Below, one piece after another: positions 13,375 through 43,622 of a DNA stretch of 64,000 nt. This DNA comes from Patescibacteria group bacterium (GTDB taxonomy: Bacteria > Patescibacteriota > Minisyncoccia > UBA9983): NCBI GenBank assembly GCA_040752125.1, contig JBFMFK010000003.1:19034-83033 (forward strand). Reading direction: 5' to 3'. How positions within the stretch are numbered: the stretch's first letter is position 1; each line of letters starts with the position of its first letter. The translations under genes and the position numbers were made by a program. The notes beneath the pieces were generated by a model that did not search any database, had not been told where the DNA came from, and saw only the letters and a list, made by a program, of their open reading frames with translations.

Positions 13375-13755
13375 ATGAAGAAAGAGAGAAAAGACACACT
13401 AATTGAAAAGTTTGAAGAAGCCTTTCAGAGATTGGAAGAAGCAATTAAAGAACGGCCGACTCAAATGAACAAAGATGCAACTATCCAACGTTTTGAATTT
13501 ACTTTTGAATTAAGTTGGAAAGCGGCGCAAGCATTTTTGAAAGATCAAGGCATTGTTTGTAAAAGTCCGCGAGATTGTTTCAGAAAGTCTGCTGATTATG
13601 GTCTGATTAAAAGTCCAACACCCTGGTTTGATTTTTTAAAAGCAAGAAATAATATTGCGCATACCTATAACCAAAAGATGGCAGATAGGATTTATAAAAA
13701 AGCAATTAAATTTCCAAATTTCGCTGAAAAACTTTTAAAAAATTTAAAAGAATAA
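13375..13755 (+). CDS. HEPN-domain nucleotidyltransferase substrate-binding protein (HI0074 family), partner of the upstream MNT
   Basis: IQRFEFTFELSWKA and the R-x4-H motif ARNNIAHTY are present. It follows the MNT gene after 11 nt. Confidence 0.7.
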   Translation: MKKERKDTLIEKFEEAFQRLEEAIKERPTQMNKDATIQRFEFTFELSWKAAQAFLKDQGIVCKSPRDCFRKSADYGLIKSPTPWFDFLKARNNIAHTYNQKMADRIYKKAIKFPNFAEKLLKNLKE

Positions 13756-13765
13756 CTTAACAAAC

Positions 13766-13860
13766 ATAAAAAAGTTTTTCAAAAATATTATAATAAATAA
13801 AAAATCCGAAATCCGAAATCCTAAACAAATTTCAATGAATCAAATCCCAAATTCAAATTA
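13766..13860. repeat. ~95-nt leader repeat R1 (AAAAAGTTTTTCAAAAATATTATAATAAA...AAATCCGAAATCCGAAATCCTAAACAAATTTCAATGAATCAAATCC), duplicated at 14521..14611
   Basis: The two copies are about 90% identical, each placed directly upstream of an operon start. Each contains a TATAAT and a triple AAATCCN direct repeat. Confidence 0.85.
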
Positions 13861-13867
13861 AAAACAT

Positions 13868-14098
13868 ATGATAACAAAAATCCCATTGAAATCTTATAAA
13901 AAACAAATCTCTTTGAAACGTTTCTCGGGGAAATGGGTAGCTTTTATTAATGATAAAGTTATTGCCTGGGCAGATAACCTTCAAGATTTAGAGAGAAAGA
14001 TAAAAAAGATAAGACCCAAAAAGGAACCAGTTTATTTTTTGGTACCAAGAAAAGATGAAGGGCCCTATATTTTGTTTCCCATACATTTTCCACAATAA
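13868..14098 (+). CDS. small hypothetical protein, DUF5678-like (GKWVAF..DKVIAWADNLQDLERKIKK)
   Basis: The ORF is 76 aa. Its pattern resembles the DUF5678 family that I recall from archaea and thermophiles. The assignment is from memory, not from a search. Confidence 0.4.
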   Translation: MITKIPLKSYKKQISLKRFSGKWVAFINDKVIAWADNLQDLERKIKKIRPKKEPVYFLVPRKDEGPYILFPIHFPQ

Positions 14099-14114
14099 TT
14101 CAATATGAAAAAAC

Positions 14115-14504
14115 ATGGAAAAAGAATTTAATTATTCACAAAAAGATAATAAATGGTATCCAACTATTGATGTAATTCTTCAAGGTCATGTGCGAGGGCG
14201 AGCCTTTAGGGCTTTAGTTGATTCTGGGGCTTCTATTTCAATATTTCGAGGAGAAGTTGCTGATTATTTAGGAATTCTTTTAGAAAAAGGAAAGCCGACG
14301 TATTTAACCGGAGTTGGTGGAAGAATTTTAGGTTACTTACATAAAATTCCTGTAGAAATTGAAAATAAAAAATTTAATTGTAAAATCATTTTTTCACGAG
14401 AATATACAGTTTCTTTTAATATTTTAGGTCGTGATAACTTTTTCTTGCCGTTTTTAATCACTTTTAACGAGAAGATGAGAAAATTAAAAATTATTGATTA
14501 TTAA
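14115..14504 (+). CDS. retropepsin-like aspartic protease (clan AA, single-domain, presumably homodimeric)
   Basis: The canonical active-site motif is present as ALVDSGASISIF (hydrophobic-hydrophobic-D-S/T-G-A), followed by a GVGG flap-like segment. Length is 129 aa. Confidence 0.6.
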   Translation: MEKEFNYSQKDNKWYPTIDVILQGHVRGRAFRALVDSGASISIFRGEVADYLGILLEKGKPTYLTGVGGRILGYLHKIPVEIENKKFNCKIIFSREYTVSFNILGRDNFFLPFLITFNEKMRKLKIIDY

Positions 14505-14520
14505 TTATGAGATGAGAAAA

Positions 14521-14611
14521 TATAAAAAAGTTTTTCAAAAATATTATAATAAAAAATCCTAAATCCTAAATCCTAAACAAATTTCAATGAATCAAATCCT
14601 AAAATCCAAAC
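14521..14611. repeat. leader repeat R2 (copy of R1)
   Basis: See R1. Confidence 0.85.
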
Positions 14612-14614
14612 AAT

Positions 14615-14740
14615 ATGAGAATTAAAATTTGCAAAAAATATTTGGCAATAATTACAATCGTTGTTCTTCTTTTGGGAATGATGCCGGCAAAAGAAGTTGA
14701 GGCGGCCACTTTTAGCAGGATGTTAATTAAAAATTTTTAA
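14615..14740 (+). CDS. 41-aa signal-peptide-like mini-ORF duplicating the N-terminus of the giant surface protein (…KEVEAATFS…), translationally coupled (TAATG) to the MNT gene
   Basis: MRIKICKKYLAIITIVVLLLGMMPAKEVEAATFSRMLIKNF can be compared with MRKFEKFLKKTLSIILLVILVSSALFANPQTVEAATFNW of the 15443 gene. At nucleotide level, gttgaggcggcCacttttaG aligns with gttgaggcggcGacttttaA. Confidence 0.3.
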   Translation: MRIKICKKYLAIITIVVLLLGMMPAKEVEAATFSRMLIKNF

Positions 14741-15087
14741 TGAATTATTCCATGGGTACCAAAATTGAAATTAAAAATTTACCAAAAGAGTTGAGGAAGA
14801 AAAGAATAGAAGAAAAATTAGCAGAAATTTGTGAACGCGAGGCCATAATCCTTATGTCTGTCTTTGGTTCTTTTGTTAAGGGACAGCAAAGAAAAAAAAG
14901 CGACATTGATATGGCAATTGAGTTTGCTAAAAATAGTGGAAAAAGCCTTTTGGATTTAGTTCGGATAGAAAATGAATTGACAAAAATATTTAAAAGAAAA
15001 GTAGACCTCGGGATTTTCAGCAGCCTAAATCCTTACATAATTCAAGATGTAAAAAAAGAAATGCAAACAATTTATGAAAAAAGATAA
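14740..15087 (+). CDS. minimal nucleotidyltransferase MntA-like (antitoxin of HepT/MntA type VII TA pair)
   Basis: The NTase motif FGSFVKGQQRKKSDIDMAI is present. The gene overlaps the downstream HepT by 14 nt. Confidence 0.75.
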   Translation: MNYSMGTKIEIKNLPKELRKKRIEEKLAEICEREAIILMSVFGSFVKGQQRKKSDIDMAIEFAKNSGKSLLDLVRIENELTKIFKRKVDLGIFSSLNPYIIQDVKKEMQTIYEKR

Positions 15088-15412
15088 GGCCTATTTAAAG
15101 CATATTTTAGATGCAATAGCCGATATAAAGAAATTTACAGAAGATATCTCAGAAGAAAAGTTTTATGAAGATAAAGAAAAACAGTATGCTGCCTTGAGGG
15201 GGCTTGAGATAATTGGCGAGGCAACAAAGAATCTTAGTAGGGAGTTAAGAGCAAAGAATCCTGAGATTCCCTGGAAAGATATTGCAGGTATGAGAGATAA
15301 GTTAATTCATGAATATTTTGGTGTCAATCTGGAATTAGTTTGGGAAACTATTAAAGATAGACTTCCTAAACTTAAAAAACAAATTTCTGAAATATTAAGT
15401 AACCTTAAATAA
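15074..15412 (+). CDS. HepT-like HEPN toxin (DUF86)
   Basis: It carries the R-x4-HxY motif MRDKLIHEYFGV and has the typical size of 112 aa. Confidence 0.75.
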   Translation: MKKDKAYLKHILDAIADIKKFTEDISEEKFYEDKEKQYAALRGLEIIGEATKNLSRELRAKNPEIPWKDIAGMRDKLIHEYFGVNLELVWETIKDRLPKLKKQISEILSNLK

Positions 15413-15442: not shown

Positions 15443-18400
15443 ATGAGAAAATTTGAAAAATTTTTAAAGAAAACTTTATCAATAATCCTTTTGGTTATTT
15501 TGGTTAGTAGTGCTCTTTTTGCAAATCCCCAAACTGTTGAGGCGGCGACTTTTAATTGGACGCAGAGTAATTGGTCTGGCGGGGCTTCTGCCAACACTGC
15601 TTCTCATCCTACCAATCAAACCGGCTGGAGTTATTATGCTTCAAAAGATGCTAATTTATCCGCTGGAGCGAGCAGCTTAACTCTCTCCACTATTGCTTCT
15701 TCCACCACCCAAACCACGAATGCTGATTTTAATTCGGGAGCAACTTCAACAACGCAGGTGAGTAATAATAGTGTGGTGTTGGCAGTAGAAACGCCGGGAG
15801 CTTCTTGTGAAAGTAGCATTACTGTTAACCACACTGCCGGCGCAATATCGCCAATTACCACAAGTATTACTTATGGAACGGTAATTACTAATCTTACAGG
15901 ATCTAATAAATGCTGGATAACCCAAAACCTTGGTGCTTCCCAACAGGCAAGTTCAGCTACTGATAATACCGATGCCTCTGCTGGCTGGTATTGGCAATTT
16001 AACCGCAAGCAGGGGTATGCAGTTGGGCCAACACCTGCCTGGACAATTACATCCATTGATGAATCTAGCGACTGGACTTCAGCTAATGACCCCTGCACCA
16101 TAGAGCTGGGCACCGGTTGGCGCTTGCCTACTTATACTGAATGGGCTAATGCTGATGGAGGATGGGCTAACTATAACGATACATACGCTTCTGTGTTAAA
16201 ACTCCATGCTGCTGGCGGCCTCTTCGCCAGCAGTGGCGGCCTGTACGGCAGAGGCGCGACCGGCCTCTACTGGAGCAGTACTCAGTACATTAGCACCCTC
16301 GGCTACTACCTGATCTTCGACAGCAGCAGCAGCAACATGGGCAGCGACAACAATAAGGCGTCTGGGTTTTCGGTGCGCTGCCTTACAGATAATATTTTAG
16401 GCTACTACTCCTCTGGCACTTTTACTTCTAATGTGATTAATCTTGGAACAAATGTAAATTGGGGCAATCTTTCCTGGACTGAAACAGGAACAGGCACGAT
16501 AACTATGAAAGCTCGGTCTTGTGATGACAGCGCTTGTTCTGGTGAAGCAGCTTTCACAAGTTGTTCTAATATCACTAATGGCGCGGCTTTATCAACTGGT
16601 AATTGTGTAACTAATGGTCATCAATATATTCAATATCAAACTGCGCTCTCAACTTCAGATATCTCATTTACACCTTCTTTAGATGACGTGACTATTGGAT
16701 ATAATTATTATCCTTCTTCTCAAAATCTAACTTCATCTAAATACGATTCCTCATCTGACGGCAATGTTATTGGCGGCCTGGCTTGGGATGAGGATGCGAC
16801 TCTTACTTCTGGAACGAGTGTAACCCTGTCACTTCGCACTGCTTCAAGCACAGTTAATCTTGATTCTGCCTCTTGGAGCGATTTTACCAATGCCACAGCA
16901 AATTGTTCTAAAGCAGGGACAAGAGTAACTTGCACCTCTTCAGCCATTCCTTCTTCTATGAAAGACGGCTCTGGCGACCAGTGGCAGCAATATAAAGTTA
17001 CTCTGACTTCTACTGGTGCTAACAAACCCACTGTAACATCTGTCATTCTCACTTATGTGGTTAATGCTCGGCCGGAGTTTGATGTGCCTAATACCACTGC
17101 TTCCCAAATCTCTGATTCCGGCAGTGCTAACTGGGGCAAGGTGCAGATAACTTATCCTATTAAAGACATTGATACTACTTCTGGTTCTATTACTCCCGGA
17201 TATGTCACTCCTTCTTTTGAATATAATACTGGCTCTGGCTGGACAACCATTACCTCTGGTTATTTGAATTCCGGAGCTTTAGACAATAAAGCGGTGCAGG
17301 AAGGAAGCTATACATCGCACACTGCTTATTGGGACGCCAAAACGCAGATCCCTAGCACTTATACAACGACCGGCCAGATACGTATCACTATAAATGATAA
17401 TGAGGGCGCCAATAATTCCACCAGCACTACCATTTCCAATATTACCATTGACACTACGAATCCAACTTTATCAGCTTTTACCCTTGACTCGTCCGCGGAT
17501 ACTTTAACGATTTCTGCTTCTGATAATTCTAATCTCCAATATCTAATTTCTAATAACCAAGACGGCTCGGCTGATGGCTCTAATGCTATTTCCAGCTCTT
17601 GGCAAACAGTAGGAGGAACTTCTACCAGTACTACCCGCGCCTGGGCATATTCTCCGGACTCCACTGGTTATGAATCAGTTACTATTGCCTACAGAGATAT
17701 TTACGGAAACACTGCCACTACCACAGATATAGCGCCTTATCAGCCCAAGAACTTTTACTATAAAGATATCTGCAATACTGCTATCAATGACTGGAGAGAA
17801 TTTCTTTCTTGGGGAGTGTATACTGCCACCACCACTTCTTCTTGGGCTAATTACAAAGTTTATCGGTCCACAGATGGAACGACTTATTCTTTGCTTGGCA
17901 CTTTAAGCAGTGACGTTAATACCAATTACTATATTGATTCTTCTGTAGCTTCAACTACTACTTATTATTATAAAGTTTTAATCACTGATTCTGACGGAGA
18001 TATTTCATCTTTCACAGACCCGGTGTCCGATCTGCCCAATGGCCAGGGCGGTTCTGACTCTACCGCTCCCTTAATCACTTCCGGCCCTACTGTGACAGAA
18101 ACCAAATCAACCTGGGCAAGCATTGTCTGGACAACAGACGAGATTTCCAATTCAGTGGTGGAATACGGCTTGACAACTAGCTACGGCTTAACCAGCACGG
18201 TAAACACTATGGTTACTTCTCATTCTGTAACTTTAACCGGGCTCACTCCCAACACCACTTATTATTTTCGGGTTAAATCAACAGATATTGCCTCTAACAC
18301 GGTCACATCAAGCGGCTCGTCATTTGTCACCACTCAAGGACCGATTATCTCTTCTGTCACAGCAGAGAGCGTGACTGACAATACCGCTTCTATTGTCTGG

Positions 18401-20335
18401 AACACTACCACTGATTCTTCTTCTTGGGTCTATTATTCCACCAGCGCCTCGTTTACCAGTTCTTCTACAGAAGGCACTAATACTTTGGTTGGCACCTCAA
18501 CTGCCGGCTATTACCAGCACCGCGTAACCCTGACTGGACTGACAAAGAACACAACCTACTATTATTATGTTAAGTCAACTGACGCTAATTCTGACACTGC
18601 CACAGACACCAATGGCGGCAATTATTATACTTTTACCACTACTTATGACAATCAGCCGCCAGTGATTTCAGACATTACAGTTCCGGTCCGGGCATATAAC
18701 GCTTTGGTTGTTACCTGGAACACTGATGAAAACGCCAATACACGGCTGTATTATGATACTGTAAGTCATGTTGATTGTTCTGGATATTCTAATAGTTCAA
18801 CTTTAGACACCAACCTGACTATTTCCCATGCTGCGGCAATAACTTCCCTTATTGGAGAAACCGCTTATTATTACAGGGTTATTTCAGCTGACGCTAATGG
18901 CAACACCACTTGCTCTAGCGAGCAGGAGACCTCCACTGTGGCTGAGAATGAAATTATTACTGTTTATGTCGGCGGTGGAGGGCCTTCTACGCCTGTTGTT
19001 GTTGATACCACAGCCCCGGCTATTTCCAATATTAATGTCAGCGATATCTCGGCTTTTGGAGCAACAGTGAATTTTAGCATCAGCGAGCCAGCAGCAGGAT
19101 TTGTTCATTACGGCAAGGACACTAATTACGGATTTATTGCCGGTTCTGACACCTTGGCCTCCAGCCACAGCGTAAAATTAGCCGGCTTGCGCCTGGGCAC
19201 AGAATATCATTATAAAGTAACGGCTATGGACAAAGCCGGTAATGTGGGCCAGTCTTCAGACCAGACCTTTTCCACTCTTTTTGCTGCAGAGGCTCTGGAA
19301 GAATTAACGACTTTGGAAAATGCAGAGCAGTTCCAGGAGCAACTAGAAGGAATAATTGAGTCAGTTATGCCTTCCTTGGTTCCTCCTTTTGTGAGCAATG
19401 TCATAGTTGACAATATCACAGAAACTTCTGCTACGGTCAAATGGAAAACCAATATTCCTGCTTTCGGTTCTGTTTCCTATGCAAGTGATTCTGAATATAA
19501 TCAAGACAAGGAAAAACCATATGTGGTGGAAATTGTTGAGAGTACAAAAGAAAAAATTAAAGAACATACTCTAGAGCTGCGCGACCTCTCTCCCGCAACC
19601 AAATATCATCTTCAGGCAAAGTCTTATGTTTTTCCGGATGTGATAGGCAAATCCAAAGATTCTGAATTTTATACATTATCATCAAAGATAAAGCCGGAGA
19701 TCACAAGAGTGGGCAATACTGATGCTGAAGTGAGATGGGTGACTGCTAAAGAAACATCTTCTTTTGCCGAATACCGAAATCTTGCGACAAATAAATTAGG
19801 AAGGATGGGAGATGATAGAAGAGTTCAAAGTCACTTCTTAAAGATAGAAAATCTTGCTCCGGGAACAAATTATGAAATCAAGGTCTTTGGCTATGACCAA
19901 GACAATAATATTATTGAAGCTGATTCCATTACCATCAGGACCAAACAAGATATATCTCCGCCTGTTATTTCTTCCATCAGGATTGATAATGCCATGGTTC
20001 CCGGCAAAAGGGATAAACTTCAGACAGTGATCTCCTGGAAAACAGACGAATCATCCAATTCCCGAGTTTATTTTGAAGAAGGAATTGGAATTTCAGATAA
20101 GCTTACCAATAAGACTGGTCAAGAGAATGAATATACCACAGACCACATTGTCATCATTACCTCAATGAAGCCAGCCACAGTTTATAGAATCAAAGTTTCT
20201 TCCAGGGATGAGGCCGGCAATACAGCTGATTCTCCAATGAGGACCTTTTTGACTCCGCGCTCTGCAGAATCTGTTTTAGATGTCATTGTCCGCAATTTTG
20301 AGGAAAGCTTTGGATTCCTCAAGCGCCTGCGCTAA
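15443..20335 (+). CDS. 1630-aa secreted/surface protein: signal peptide, FISUMP/DUF1566-like domain (…CWITQNLGA…GWRLPTYTEW…GFSVRCL), Ser/Thr-rich linker regions and ~7 fibronectin-III/PAP-N-like repeats
   Basis: The N-terminus has a hydrophobic core followed by VEAATF. The FISUMP hallmarks KCW..QNL, GWRLPT..EW and G.SVRC are present. The repeated FN3-type units each end in ...Y.Y.V.S.D..GN. There is no C-terminal anchor. Confidence 0.85.
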   Translation: MRKFEKFLKKTLSIILLVILVSSALFANPQTVEAATFNWTQSNWSGGASANTASHPTNQTGWSYYASKDANLSAGASSLTLSTIASSTTQTTNADFNSGATSTTQVSNNSVVLAVETPGASCESSITVNHTAGAISPITTSITYGTVITNLTGSNKCWITQNLGASQQASSATDNTDASAGWYWQFNRKQGYAVGPTPAWTITSIDESSDWTSANDPCTIELGTGWRLPTYTEWANADGGWANYNDTYASVLKLHAAGGLFASSGGLYGRGATGLYWSSTQYISTLGYYLIFDSSSSNMGSDNNKASGFSVRCLTDNILGYYSSGTFTSNVINLGTNVNWGNLSWTETGTGTITMKARSCDDSACSGEAAFTSCSNITNGAALSTGNCVTNGHQYIQYQTALSTSDISFTPSLDDVTIGYNYYPSSQNLTSSKYDSSSDGNVIGGLAWDEDATLTSGTSVTLSLRTASSTVNLDSASWSDFTNATANCSKAGTRVTCTSSAIPSSMKDGSGDQWQQYKVTLTSTGANKPTVTSVILTYVVNARPEFDVPNTTASQISDSGSANWGKVQITYPIKDIDTTSGSITPGYVTPSFEYNTGSGWTTITSGYLNSGALDNKAVQEGSYTSHTAYWDAKTQIPSTYTTTGQIRITINDNEGANNSTSTTISNITIDTTNPTLSAFTLDSSADTLTISASDNSNLQYLISNNQDGSADGSNAISSSWQTVGGTSTSTTRAWAYSPDSTGYESVTIAYRDIYGNTATTTDIAPYQPKNFYYKDICNTAINDWREFLSWGVYTATTTSSWANYKVYRSTDGTTYSLLGTLSSDVNTNYYIDSSVASTTTYYYKVLITDSDGDISSFTDPVSDLPNGQGGSDSTAPLITSGPTVTETKSTWASIVWTTDEISNSVVEYGLTTSYGLTSTVNTMVTSHSVTLTGLTPNTTYYFRVKSTDIASNTVTSSGSSFVTTQGPIISSVTAESVTDNTASIVWNTTTDSSSWVYYSTSASFTSSSTEGTNTLVGTSTAGYYQHRVTLTGLTKNTTYYYYVKSTDANSDTATDTNGGNYYTFTTTYDNQPPVISDITVPVRAYNALVVTWNTDENANTRLYYDTVSHVDCSGYSNSSTLDTNLTISHAAAITSLIGETAYYYRVISADANGNTTCSSEQETSTVAENEIITVYVGGGGPSTPVVVDTTAPAISNINVSDISAFGATVNFSISEPAAGFVHYGKDTNYGFIAGSDTLASSHSVKLAGLRLGTEYHYKVTAMDKAGNVGQSSDQTFSTLFAAEALEELTTLENAEQFQEQLEGIIESVMPSLVPPFVSNVIVDNITETSATVKWKTNIPAFGSVSYASDSEYNQDKEKPYVVEIVESTKEKIKEHTLELRDLSPATKYHLQAKSYVFPDVIGKSKDSEFYTLSSKIKPEITRVGNTDAEVRWVTAKETSSFAEYRNLATNKLGRMGDDRRVQSHFLKIENLAPGTNYEIKVFGYDQDNNIIEADSITIRTKQDISPPVISSIRIDNAMVPGKRDKLQTVISWKTDESSNSRVYFEEGIGISDKLTNKTGQENEYTTDHIVIITSMKPATVYRIKVSSRDEAGNTADSPMRTFLTPRSAESVLDVIVRNFEESFGFLKRLR

Positions 20336-20411: not shown

Positions 20412-20482
20412 GGGCCTATAGTTTAGTGGCAGAACACCGCTTTTGCACAGCGGAAATGGCAGTTCGATTCTGCCTAGGTCCA
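20412..20482 (+). tRNA. tRNA-Ala (anticodon UGC)
   Basis: The cloverleaf can be drawn by hand. The acceptor stem GGGCCTA/TAGGTCC includes the G3:U70 wobble that is the Ala identity element. The anticodon stem is CCGCT/AGCGG with loop TTTGCAC, the T-loop is TTCGATT, and there is no encoded CCA. Confidence 0.85.
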
Positions 20483-43550: not shown

Positions 43551-43622
43551 GACCTCTTCGTCTAGTGGTTAGGACACATGGTTCTCAGCCATGCAACACG
43601 GGTTCGACTCCCGTAGAGGTCA
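43551..43622 (+). tRNA. tRNA-Glu (anticodon CUC)
   Basis: Cloverleaf drawn by hand. The acceptor stem is GACCTCT/AGAGGTC. The anticodon stem is CATGG/CCATG with loop TTCTCAG, and the T-arm is ACGGG-TTCGACT-CCCGT. Confidence 0.85.

Follow-up and report, generated by a model that had tools for sequence, protein, structure and literature searches.

A short island of C-ending codons within a giant gene of a Patescibacteria group bacterium is very probably the variable region (VR) of a target domain of a diversity-generating retroelement (DGR). The gene (15443..20335, forward strand, as are all features of it described below) lies in the 64-kb stretch of contig JBFMFK010000003.1 that was analyzed here, referred to as the window. 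Its 1630-aa product is a predicted surface protein with a leader, a C-type-lectin head, and a stalk, as judged from the open reading frame (ORF) list, the translation, and Pfam matches to fn3 and Pur_ac_phosph_N. The island, hereafter called the patch, covers codons 256-315 (16208..16385). In the mechanism that we propose, reverse transcription of the RNA of a template repeat (TR) would misincorporate bases at random opposite adenines, and the resulting cDNA would replace the VR, which is the process of mutagenic retrohoming. With the TRs of the clade being built of AAC/NNC codons, codon positions 1 and 2 would be scrambled and the third C (or G/T) would be copied faithfully, and the VR would thus carry the synonymous sites of its template, not those of the 35%-GC host. 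Recopying of these sites at each homing would leave a sharp C-ending island in which the G+C contents of codon positions 1 and 2 (GC1 and GC2) are unchanged, and a patch that is the footprint of a template requires no high-GC donor organism. The VR would constitute the C-terminal, ligand-facing part of the C-type-lectin head, a module that has been inserted after the leader and ahead of the Fn3 stalk in the giant Patescibacteria surface protein.

The G+C content of the whole window is 35.8%, and the values for the three codon positions of the giant gene (GC1/GC2/GC3) are 0.41/0.51/0.39 overall. An earlier note on this DNA had described a sharp patch of G/C-ending codons at 16211-16383, and such a patch indeed exists: in a 58-codon sliding scan, GC3 reaches 0.83 at 16208-16381 while GC1 (0.43) and GC2 (0.59) are unchanged relative to the gene, and none of 20,000 codon permutations of the giant gene reached the GC3 of the patch. 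Its natural bounds, 16208-16385, agree with the earlier ones within 3 nt, and the GC3 between them is 0.84, versus 0.36 in the flanks (0.35 on the upstream side, 0.37 on the downstream side). Within the whole 64 kb, the G+C content peaks in the 174-nt stretch 16209-16382 (0.615, +4.5 standard deviations), and the best 57-codon GC3 stretch of the giant gene scores 0.842, the runner-up among the 42 other ORFs scoring 0.579. The bias is synonymous, as the ratio of C to T in two-fold NNY codons is 20:4 in the patch, compared with 120:271 in the remainder of the gene (Fisher P = 4e-7) and 816:2665 across the other ORFs (Fisher P = 1e-9). Moreover, the GC3 excess is specifically C-ending. The third positions of the 57 codons comprise 37 C, 11 G, 8 T, and 1 A, and NNC codons account for 36 of 55 codons in the patch versus 356 of 1575 elsewhere in the giant gene (P = 4e-11). 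The second and third highest G+C stretches of the window, 18014-18187 and 15955-16128, are also found within the giant gene (0.53); the former shows only a moderate rise in GC3 (about 0.55), and neither of them resembles the patch or is matched by the TR profile described below.

The closest homologs of the domain that carries the patch are single-domain proteins, P0117 (locus L001) and P0116 (loci L002-L004), which are 72-73% identical to it and whose genes sit directly upstream of a TR, a bAvd gene, and the gene of an RVT_1 reverse transcriptase (RT). In L001 and L002, a direct repeat of 179 nt and 164 nt, respectively, links the 3' end of the target gene with the intergenic region, and where the two copies disagree, the downstream one, the TR, has an adenine in 18 of 18 cases in L001 and 22 of 23 in L002. 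Restriction of VR/TR mismatches to adenines is the defining relationship of a DGR. The patch in the window aligns in frame with these two VR/TR pairs and with those of nine loci, and its ends coincide with the VR/TR ends, the start being GCTGCTGGC (16208) and the end CGCTGCCTTA (16385). A profile constructed with nhmmer from 10 TRs and their flanks matches the window at 16207-16415 (E = 1.9e-36) and nowhere else. The consensus of nine TRs of the clade stands here in place of a cognate TR. The window departs from it at 18 of 44 columns with a conserved A but at only 2 of 73 columns with another conserved base (Fisher P = 1.7e-7). The codons at which the clade TRs carry AAC/AAT/TAC define an adenine-diversified core at 16217..16363, where the window has GGC, TTC, GCC, TAC, GGC, ACC, CTC, ATC, GAC, among others, the third base being preserved; at the AAC codons of the TRs it reads TTC, GCC, TAC, GGC, ACC, CTC, ATC, GAC, AGC, and others, which are scrambled in positions 1-2 but keep their third base. 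AAC is the typical template codon of DGRs (PMC5758913). The run that follows ATG in the window is longer by one NNC codon than in any of the nine aligned TRs, and indels beside AAC repeats are a described feature of DGRs (PMC5758913). At its 3' end, the VR contains a constant segment, AATAAGGCGTCTGGGTTTTCGGTGCGCTGCCTTA (16352..16385), which encodes NKASGFSVRCL. From its alignment with the constant 3' ends of the VR/TR pairs, this segment is putatively the equivalent of the initiation-of-mutagenic-homing element (IMH), a concept established for DGRs (PMC5758913).

The codon signature was then compared with the presence of a TR across the family. One genome per GTDB species was scanned and the best 79 loci were kept, which, together with L001, L002, L125, and the window, gave 142 domain copies. 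Ten of the 142 have a TR in cis with A-restricted mismatches, and an RT was found at all ten of their loci and an Avd match at nine. In these ten copies, the fraction of NNC codons is 0.49-0.70, that of third-position A is at most 0.04, and the median GC3 excess, which means the GC3 of the VR relative to the upstream part of the domain, is 0.37; the corresponding medians of the 131 TR-less copies are 0.40, 0.11, and 0.12. The window copy, with values of 0.65, 0.02, and 0.48, ranks second among the 142. At the confirmed DGR loci, the GC3 of the VR (0.63-0.82) is uncorrelated with the G+C content of the locus (0.36-0.48; r = -0.22), and the TRs are 63-81% G/C and 0-4% A at the positions equivalent to third codon positions. 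The earlier note had proposed looking for the patch in orthologs, and every homolog with a cis TR was found to carry it, while DGR-less homologs mostly do not. An example of the latter is P0097 (L125), which has the same head-plus-stalk layout without the patch (GC3 0.44, NNC 0.30, third-position A 0.18). In the window VR, 34 of the 36 G/C third positions of the family consensus are kept. We infer that retrohoming wrote this very copy and that the writing was recent, decay amounting to at most about 0.09 substitutions per synonymous site, although an attempt at dating through third-position conservation gave no discrimination between the upstream part (17 of 18) and the VR (34 of 36). The argument of the earlier note that the patch must be recent or maintained, or else it would have been ameliorated, is sound, and in the case of a DGR it suggests that retrohoming was recent or is still going on.

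The N-terminal 420 aa of the giant protein have many homologs in protein searches. The family shares a strongly conserved core of ~140 aa, CWITQNLG..AGWYWQFNRKQGY..DPCTIELGTGWR.PT..EW, followed by a hypervariable tail of ~55 aa that ends with GFS[VL]RC[LI], and the column entropy calculated for 50 family members is 2.26 bits in the VR tail versus 1.37 upstream. The earlier designation of the domain as FISUMP is only weakly supported, since TIGR02145 (30.0 bits; cut-off 41.65), PF09603 (Fib_succ_major; 16.9 bits; cut-off 33.9), and PF07603 (Lcl_C; 18.9 bits; cut-off 34.9) all score below their cut-offs; close homologs have precomputed matches with PF26707 (DUF8237), PF09603, or PF07603. The structure of the head was predicted from a 50-sequence alignment, a 14-sequence version being unusable (pLDDT 45.8). 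The top fold match of the model is the C-terminal domain of Legionella Lcl (7.4), followed by Treponema TvpA (7.3), Mtd (5.6), SUMF2, a paralogue of FGE (5.5), and TaqVP (5.2), after which dozens more C-type lectin domains appear. Foldseek by itself gave weak matches to the model, and a PDB search by sequence only was uninformative (best E = 0.25). The model thus predicts a C-type-lectin fold for the head, with the VR as its C-terminal part. This places the head in the CLec2 or "category d" class of DGR targets, in which the VR overlaps DUF1566, DUF823, or Fib_succ_major and which accounts for 14% of DGRs (PMC5758913). The domain is also found, at 54-71% identity to that of the window, in loci L126-L204, which belong to metagenome-assembled genomes (MAGs) labelled Bacteroidota, Omnitrophota, Planctomycetia, Alphaproteobacteria, Nanoarchaeota, Bathyarchaeia, and Methanosarcinales. 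The TRs are ~75-80% identical in DNA across these variously labelled MAGs, which suggests wide horizontal spread of the cassette or, in some cases, binning errors.

In the giant protein, the head occupies aa 118-314 (15794..16384) and is of the Lcl_C/DUF1566, Fib_succ_major, or DUF8237 type. It is preceded by the N-terminal leader module, aa 1 to about 110 (15443..15772), which was recognized by BLASTP: aa 1-107 show 42% identity with P0246, and matches are also present in P0249, P0251, P0253, P0254, P0257, P0262, P0263, and P0267. The head is followed by the stalk and its Fn3-repeat extension, aa 315-1630 (16385..20332), which were delineated by homolog search, a map of high-scoring segment pairs, and Pfam, the repeats being Fn3/Pur_ac_phosph_N-like. 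The ORF is intact and runs 1316 codons past the VR. Comparison of flanks defines a junction into the stalk at 16386..16460, where the ORF reads on as TDNILGYYSSGTF..., and the 3' junction of the head is the exact site of the stop codon in free-standing targets. In other proteins, stalk homology begins at aa 319-326, and the leader and the stalk (from aa 315-326 on) are common to other giant proteins of Patescibacteria that have different heads between them. In P0246-P0267, the interchangeable heads are RCC1, LamG, beta-propeller, PF12810, or others, and among the leader/stalk relatives the lectin head is found only in the protein of the window and, partially, in P0097. The lectin domain is thus a swapped-in head of a mosaic protein, and the mosaic origin that the earlier note had suggested therefore applies to the domain that carries the patch.

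The same note had ascribed the patch to gene conversion or horizontal transfer from a high-GC donor. The segment is indeed discrete, with a history of its own, and bears the marks of one-way replacement, here through cDNA in DGR retrohoming, itself a form of gene conversion, but the donor is not supported. Recent acquisition or conversion of ~170 nt from a high-GC lineage would accord with the sharp bounds of the patch and its composition, which is strongly discordant with that of the host; DGR cassettes are, in addition, horizontally mobile (PMC5758913), and MAGs of many phyla contain the domain. GC1 and GC2 are, however, unmoved, and the third-position excess is specific to C. Furthermore, homologous patches exist in hosts of 36-48% GC without correlation with host GC, the bounds of the patch are those of the VR and TR, the differences from the templates are adenine-specific, and none of the genome, metagenome, and viral collections yielded a matching donor sequence. 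Together, these points make such a donor very unlikely. The chance that the patch reflects local selection on mRNA or translation independent of any retroelement, be it for codon accuracy, RNA structure, or an overlapping antisense gene, seems slimmer still. The segment does encode conserved scaffold residues (G..YWSSTQ and KA.GFSVRCL), and clade-conserved third positions are more frequent in the VR (42 of 57 columns) than upstream (45 of about 140 columns). The predicted folding energy of the patch RNA, on the other hand, is at the level of shuffled sequences (z = 0.16), there is no antisense ORF of at least 30 aa across the patch, and an Rfam search of the window returned two tRNAs only, with no match in the patch. 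Most DGR-less members with the same scaffold are unbiased, as exemplified by the median GC3 excess of the 131 TR-less copies and by P0097, and the bias follows the presence of a TR. Because P0097 has the same architecture and lacks the patch, protein-level selection is not the source of the patch.

The DGR origin of the patch must be weighed against several observations that do not favor it. No TR was detected on either strand of the 64-kb window by blastn, with degenerate 30-60-mer TR models, or with the nhmmer profile of TRs and flanks; no YxDD motif was found in any frame of the window with a regular expression; tblastn gave no window match to the RT or Avd of the clade at E <= 1e-5; and the structured RNA associated with the TRs of the clade is absent from the window. 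The window extends for 16.2 kb upstream of the VR and for 47.6 kb downstream of it, while each of the 12 TR-bearing loci of the clade has its TR <1 kb downstream of the VR. TR-model patterns of 78 nt and 57 nt with fixed third codon positions, which were validated on L001 and L002, had no matches in the genome, metagenome (two scans), and viral contig collections; an earlier pattern that allowed "X or A" at every base was discarded, as the viral contigs yielded only poly-A and contig ends with it. The own VR of the window was likewise unrecovered from those collections, indicating that the source genome lies outside them. That genome, a Patescibacteria MAG at NCBI that encodes MEW5907667.1, is closest among named lineages to Portnoybacteria and other Parcubacteria. 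Among the 142 copies in 82 loci, there were no trans VR/TR pairs, only cis pairs, with one partial cross-genome match between the VR of L128 and the TR in L129. Confirmed targets are C-terminal in 10 of 10 cases, while the VR of the window is internal (aa 256-314 of 1630). In the targets of the clade, the VR is followed by K/R-D, a stop codon, and a conserved ATTTGA-repeat flank, GAY-TGA-CAATTTGATTWTTTGA..., and this flank, present at 10 of 10 cis-TR targets, is absent after the window VR. No GC-rich hairpin follows the VR in the window either, where the DNA folding energy of the 90 nt downstream, -3.0 kcal/mol, is the weakest, versus -5.3 to -21.4 kcal/mol in confirmed targets; hairpins are reported in only 34% of DGRs and internal VRs in few (Wu et al., PMC5758913). 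Finally, the signature is present, with no TR in the locus, in 8 of 53 internal copies elsewhere, and it can therefore be inherited through duplication or fusion.

These observations bear on the present state of the VR, for which two possibilities can be considered. One possibility, to which we would give somewhat less than an even chance, is that the VR is still diversified in trans by a remote DGR, located >16 kb upstream or >47 kb downstream in what is a small Patescibacteria genome. Current activity is favored by the intact ORF and by a signature that is essentially undecayed for a genome of 35% GC, no more than 2 of the 36 consensus G/C third positions having been lost. Non-adjacent targets, moreover, have been described for 45 of 372 DGRs and targets >100 kb away for 10 DGRs (PMC5758913), and Patescibacteria have their own clade of cellular DGRs (PMC8144416). 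Another possibility is that the VR was orphaned recently, either through fusion of the target, at its last codons, to the stalk of a native giant gene or through loss of the DGR, and is now a young fossil decaying to host codon usage. This would be a case nested within the DGR origin, so its probability does not add to that of the origin, and we consider the odds of it to be about even. Such a fate would be in keeping with the lack of TR, RT, Avd, and TR-associated RNA within -16.2 kb/+47.6 kb of the VR and with the position of the fusion junction at the stop codon of the relatives, which removes the flank found at every confirmed target. It would also be in keeping with the decayed VR of P0097, which shares the head-plus-stalk layout, with the internal copies elsewhere that retain the signature without a TR, and with the failure to find a trans pair in the sampled loci. 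The signature of the window copy is nevertheless near-pristine for a 35%-GC genome, as indicated by its rank among the 142 copies, its retained G/C third positions, and its two mismatches at the 73 non-A columns, and across the family decayed copies are far more numerous than pristine TR-less ones. Because the signature is essentially pristine, any orphaning would have to be very recent.

The survey also revealed several features of the related loci. The stop codon and the ATTTGA repeats that follow it look like the target-side recognition element of the clade. Among C-terminal copies, the ATTTGA motif is associated with the VR-like signature (22 of 29 versus 16 of 58, P = 2.6e-5). ATTTGA-like tandem repeats (TGACAATTTGATTWTTTGAYAATTT) are found after the stop codon in L001 (11048-11090), L002 (6511-6550), L126, L128, L129, L142, L145, L179, L181, and L193, and the TR copy continues instead with GAGACTATAAA...CTGCCA. 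The TR of the relatives is preceded by a structured RNA, at 11095-11240 in L001, at 7077-7220 in L002, and in 9 further loci. It has three hairpins with compensatory changes, 26 of 81 predicted pairs showing covariation, and a long-range helix of TATAGTCT with AGACTATA encloses the whole TR; its resemblance to the RT-7 RNA of Rfam (RF03028) is weak (37.8 bits versus a gathering score of 116.8, E = 1.6e-7). In L161 (2449-2772) and L188 (10575-10931), a TR and the upstream RNA element are present, but the VR-like segment is mismatched at non-adenines (25 of 33 and 17 of 32 mismatches, respectively), with the NNC signature persisting in both; they are either decaying DGRs or non-cognate neighbours. 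L149 (10001-10597), which also has a GC hairpin, and L138, L166, and L198 contain C-terminal copies that combine the ATTTGA flank with the complete VR-like signature. No TR or RT was found for these four within the flanks of 4.5 to 10 kb on each side, and they are candidates for remote targets of the clade.

A cluster of toxin-antitoxin type is located directly upstream of the giant gene (13375-15412). It contains an NTase-substrate-binding/HepT-like gene (13375-13755), a gene of a retropepsin-like aspartyl protease (14115-14504), and a gene of a Pol-beta-type nucleotidyltransferase (14740-15087), which overlaps that of a HepT RNase (15074-15412). Nucleotidyltransferase genes (Polbeta/NTP_transf_2) are also found upstream of the target in L001, L002, and L003, with HepT-like partners in L001 and L003. 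The two tRNA genes of the window, at 20412-20482 and 43551-43622 (Rfam, 67 and 62 bits), lie, respectively, 77 nt past the stop codon of the giant gene and over the listed GTG start (43547) of a 919-aa P-type ATPase ORF. Because of this overlap, the true start of the ATPase ORF is probably further downstream.

The compositional anomaly of the giant gene can thus be accounted for by a known mechanism, not by foreign high-GC DNA. A C-ending island in which GC1 and GC2 stay the same and third-position A is nearly absent is, furthermore, a usable signature of a DGR VR that can be read from the sequence alone, and pipelines anchored on the TR miss remote or orphan targets (PMC8144416). The case is also of interest in that a giant surface protein from a bacterium of the Patescibacteria, or candidate phyla radiation (CPR), a lineage thought to rely on attachment to other cells, bears a hypervariable lectin head of the DGR type. 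If a remote DGR still serves the VR, it would be a rare CLec2 target that is both internal and remote and would have a bearing on the cis requirements of target recognition by DGRs: rewriting in trans would mean that, in this clade, the constant segment at the 3' end of the VR suffices for a target to be recognized. The hypervariable lectin head on a giant Fn3 stalk would, in that event, act as a programmable adhesin of an organism that is probably attached to a host cell.

Among known systems, the DGR of Treponema denticola TvpA, which has remote targets, and that of Bordetella phage BPP-1 Mtd have no detectable sequence similarity to the window, and every VR in these systems has a demonstrated cognate TR. 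BPP-1 requires the IMH and a downstream GC hairpin, the latter of which has no counterpart after the window VR. The DGR targets of the CLec2 class, exemplified by LdtA of Legionella pneumophila (PMC5758913), are alike in the type of domain, the location of the VR in the last ~57 codons of the lectin domain, the AAC-derived NNC codons, and the prediction of a surface protein, whereas the window differs from them in the internal VR, the lack of an adjacent TR, Avd, and RT, and the host, a Patescibacteria MAG. Wu et al. 2018 (PMC5758913) list just one CLec2 DGR with internal VRs. The DGR cassettes of L001 (a Hainich groundwater contig), L002-L004, and L126 (a Candidatus Omnitrophota MAG) have the order target, structured RNA, TR, Avd, and RT. 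They resemble the window in the domain (71-73% identical in protein sequence), in the DNA of the VR and TR (~80% identical at non-A template positions), in the bounds of the VR, in the scaffold codons, and, for L001, L002, and L003, in having MNT/HepT toxin-antitoxin genes upstream. Their targets, unlike the giant protein of the window, are 351-363 aa long, end two codons past the VR, and are followed by the ATTTGA-repeat flank, with the TR 200-900 nt downstream. In comparison with these systems, the VR of the window is a CLec2-type DGR variable region of a known kind that is found in an uncommon context, i.e., at an internal position of a giant modular CPR surface protein with no DGR in cis.

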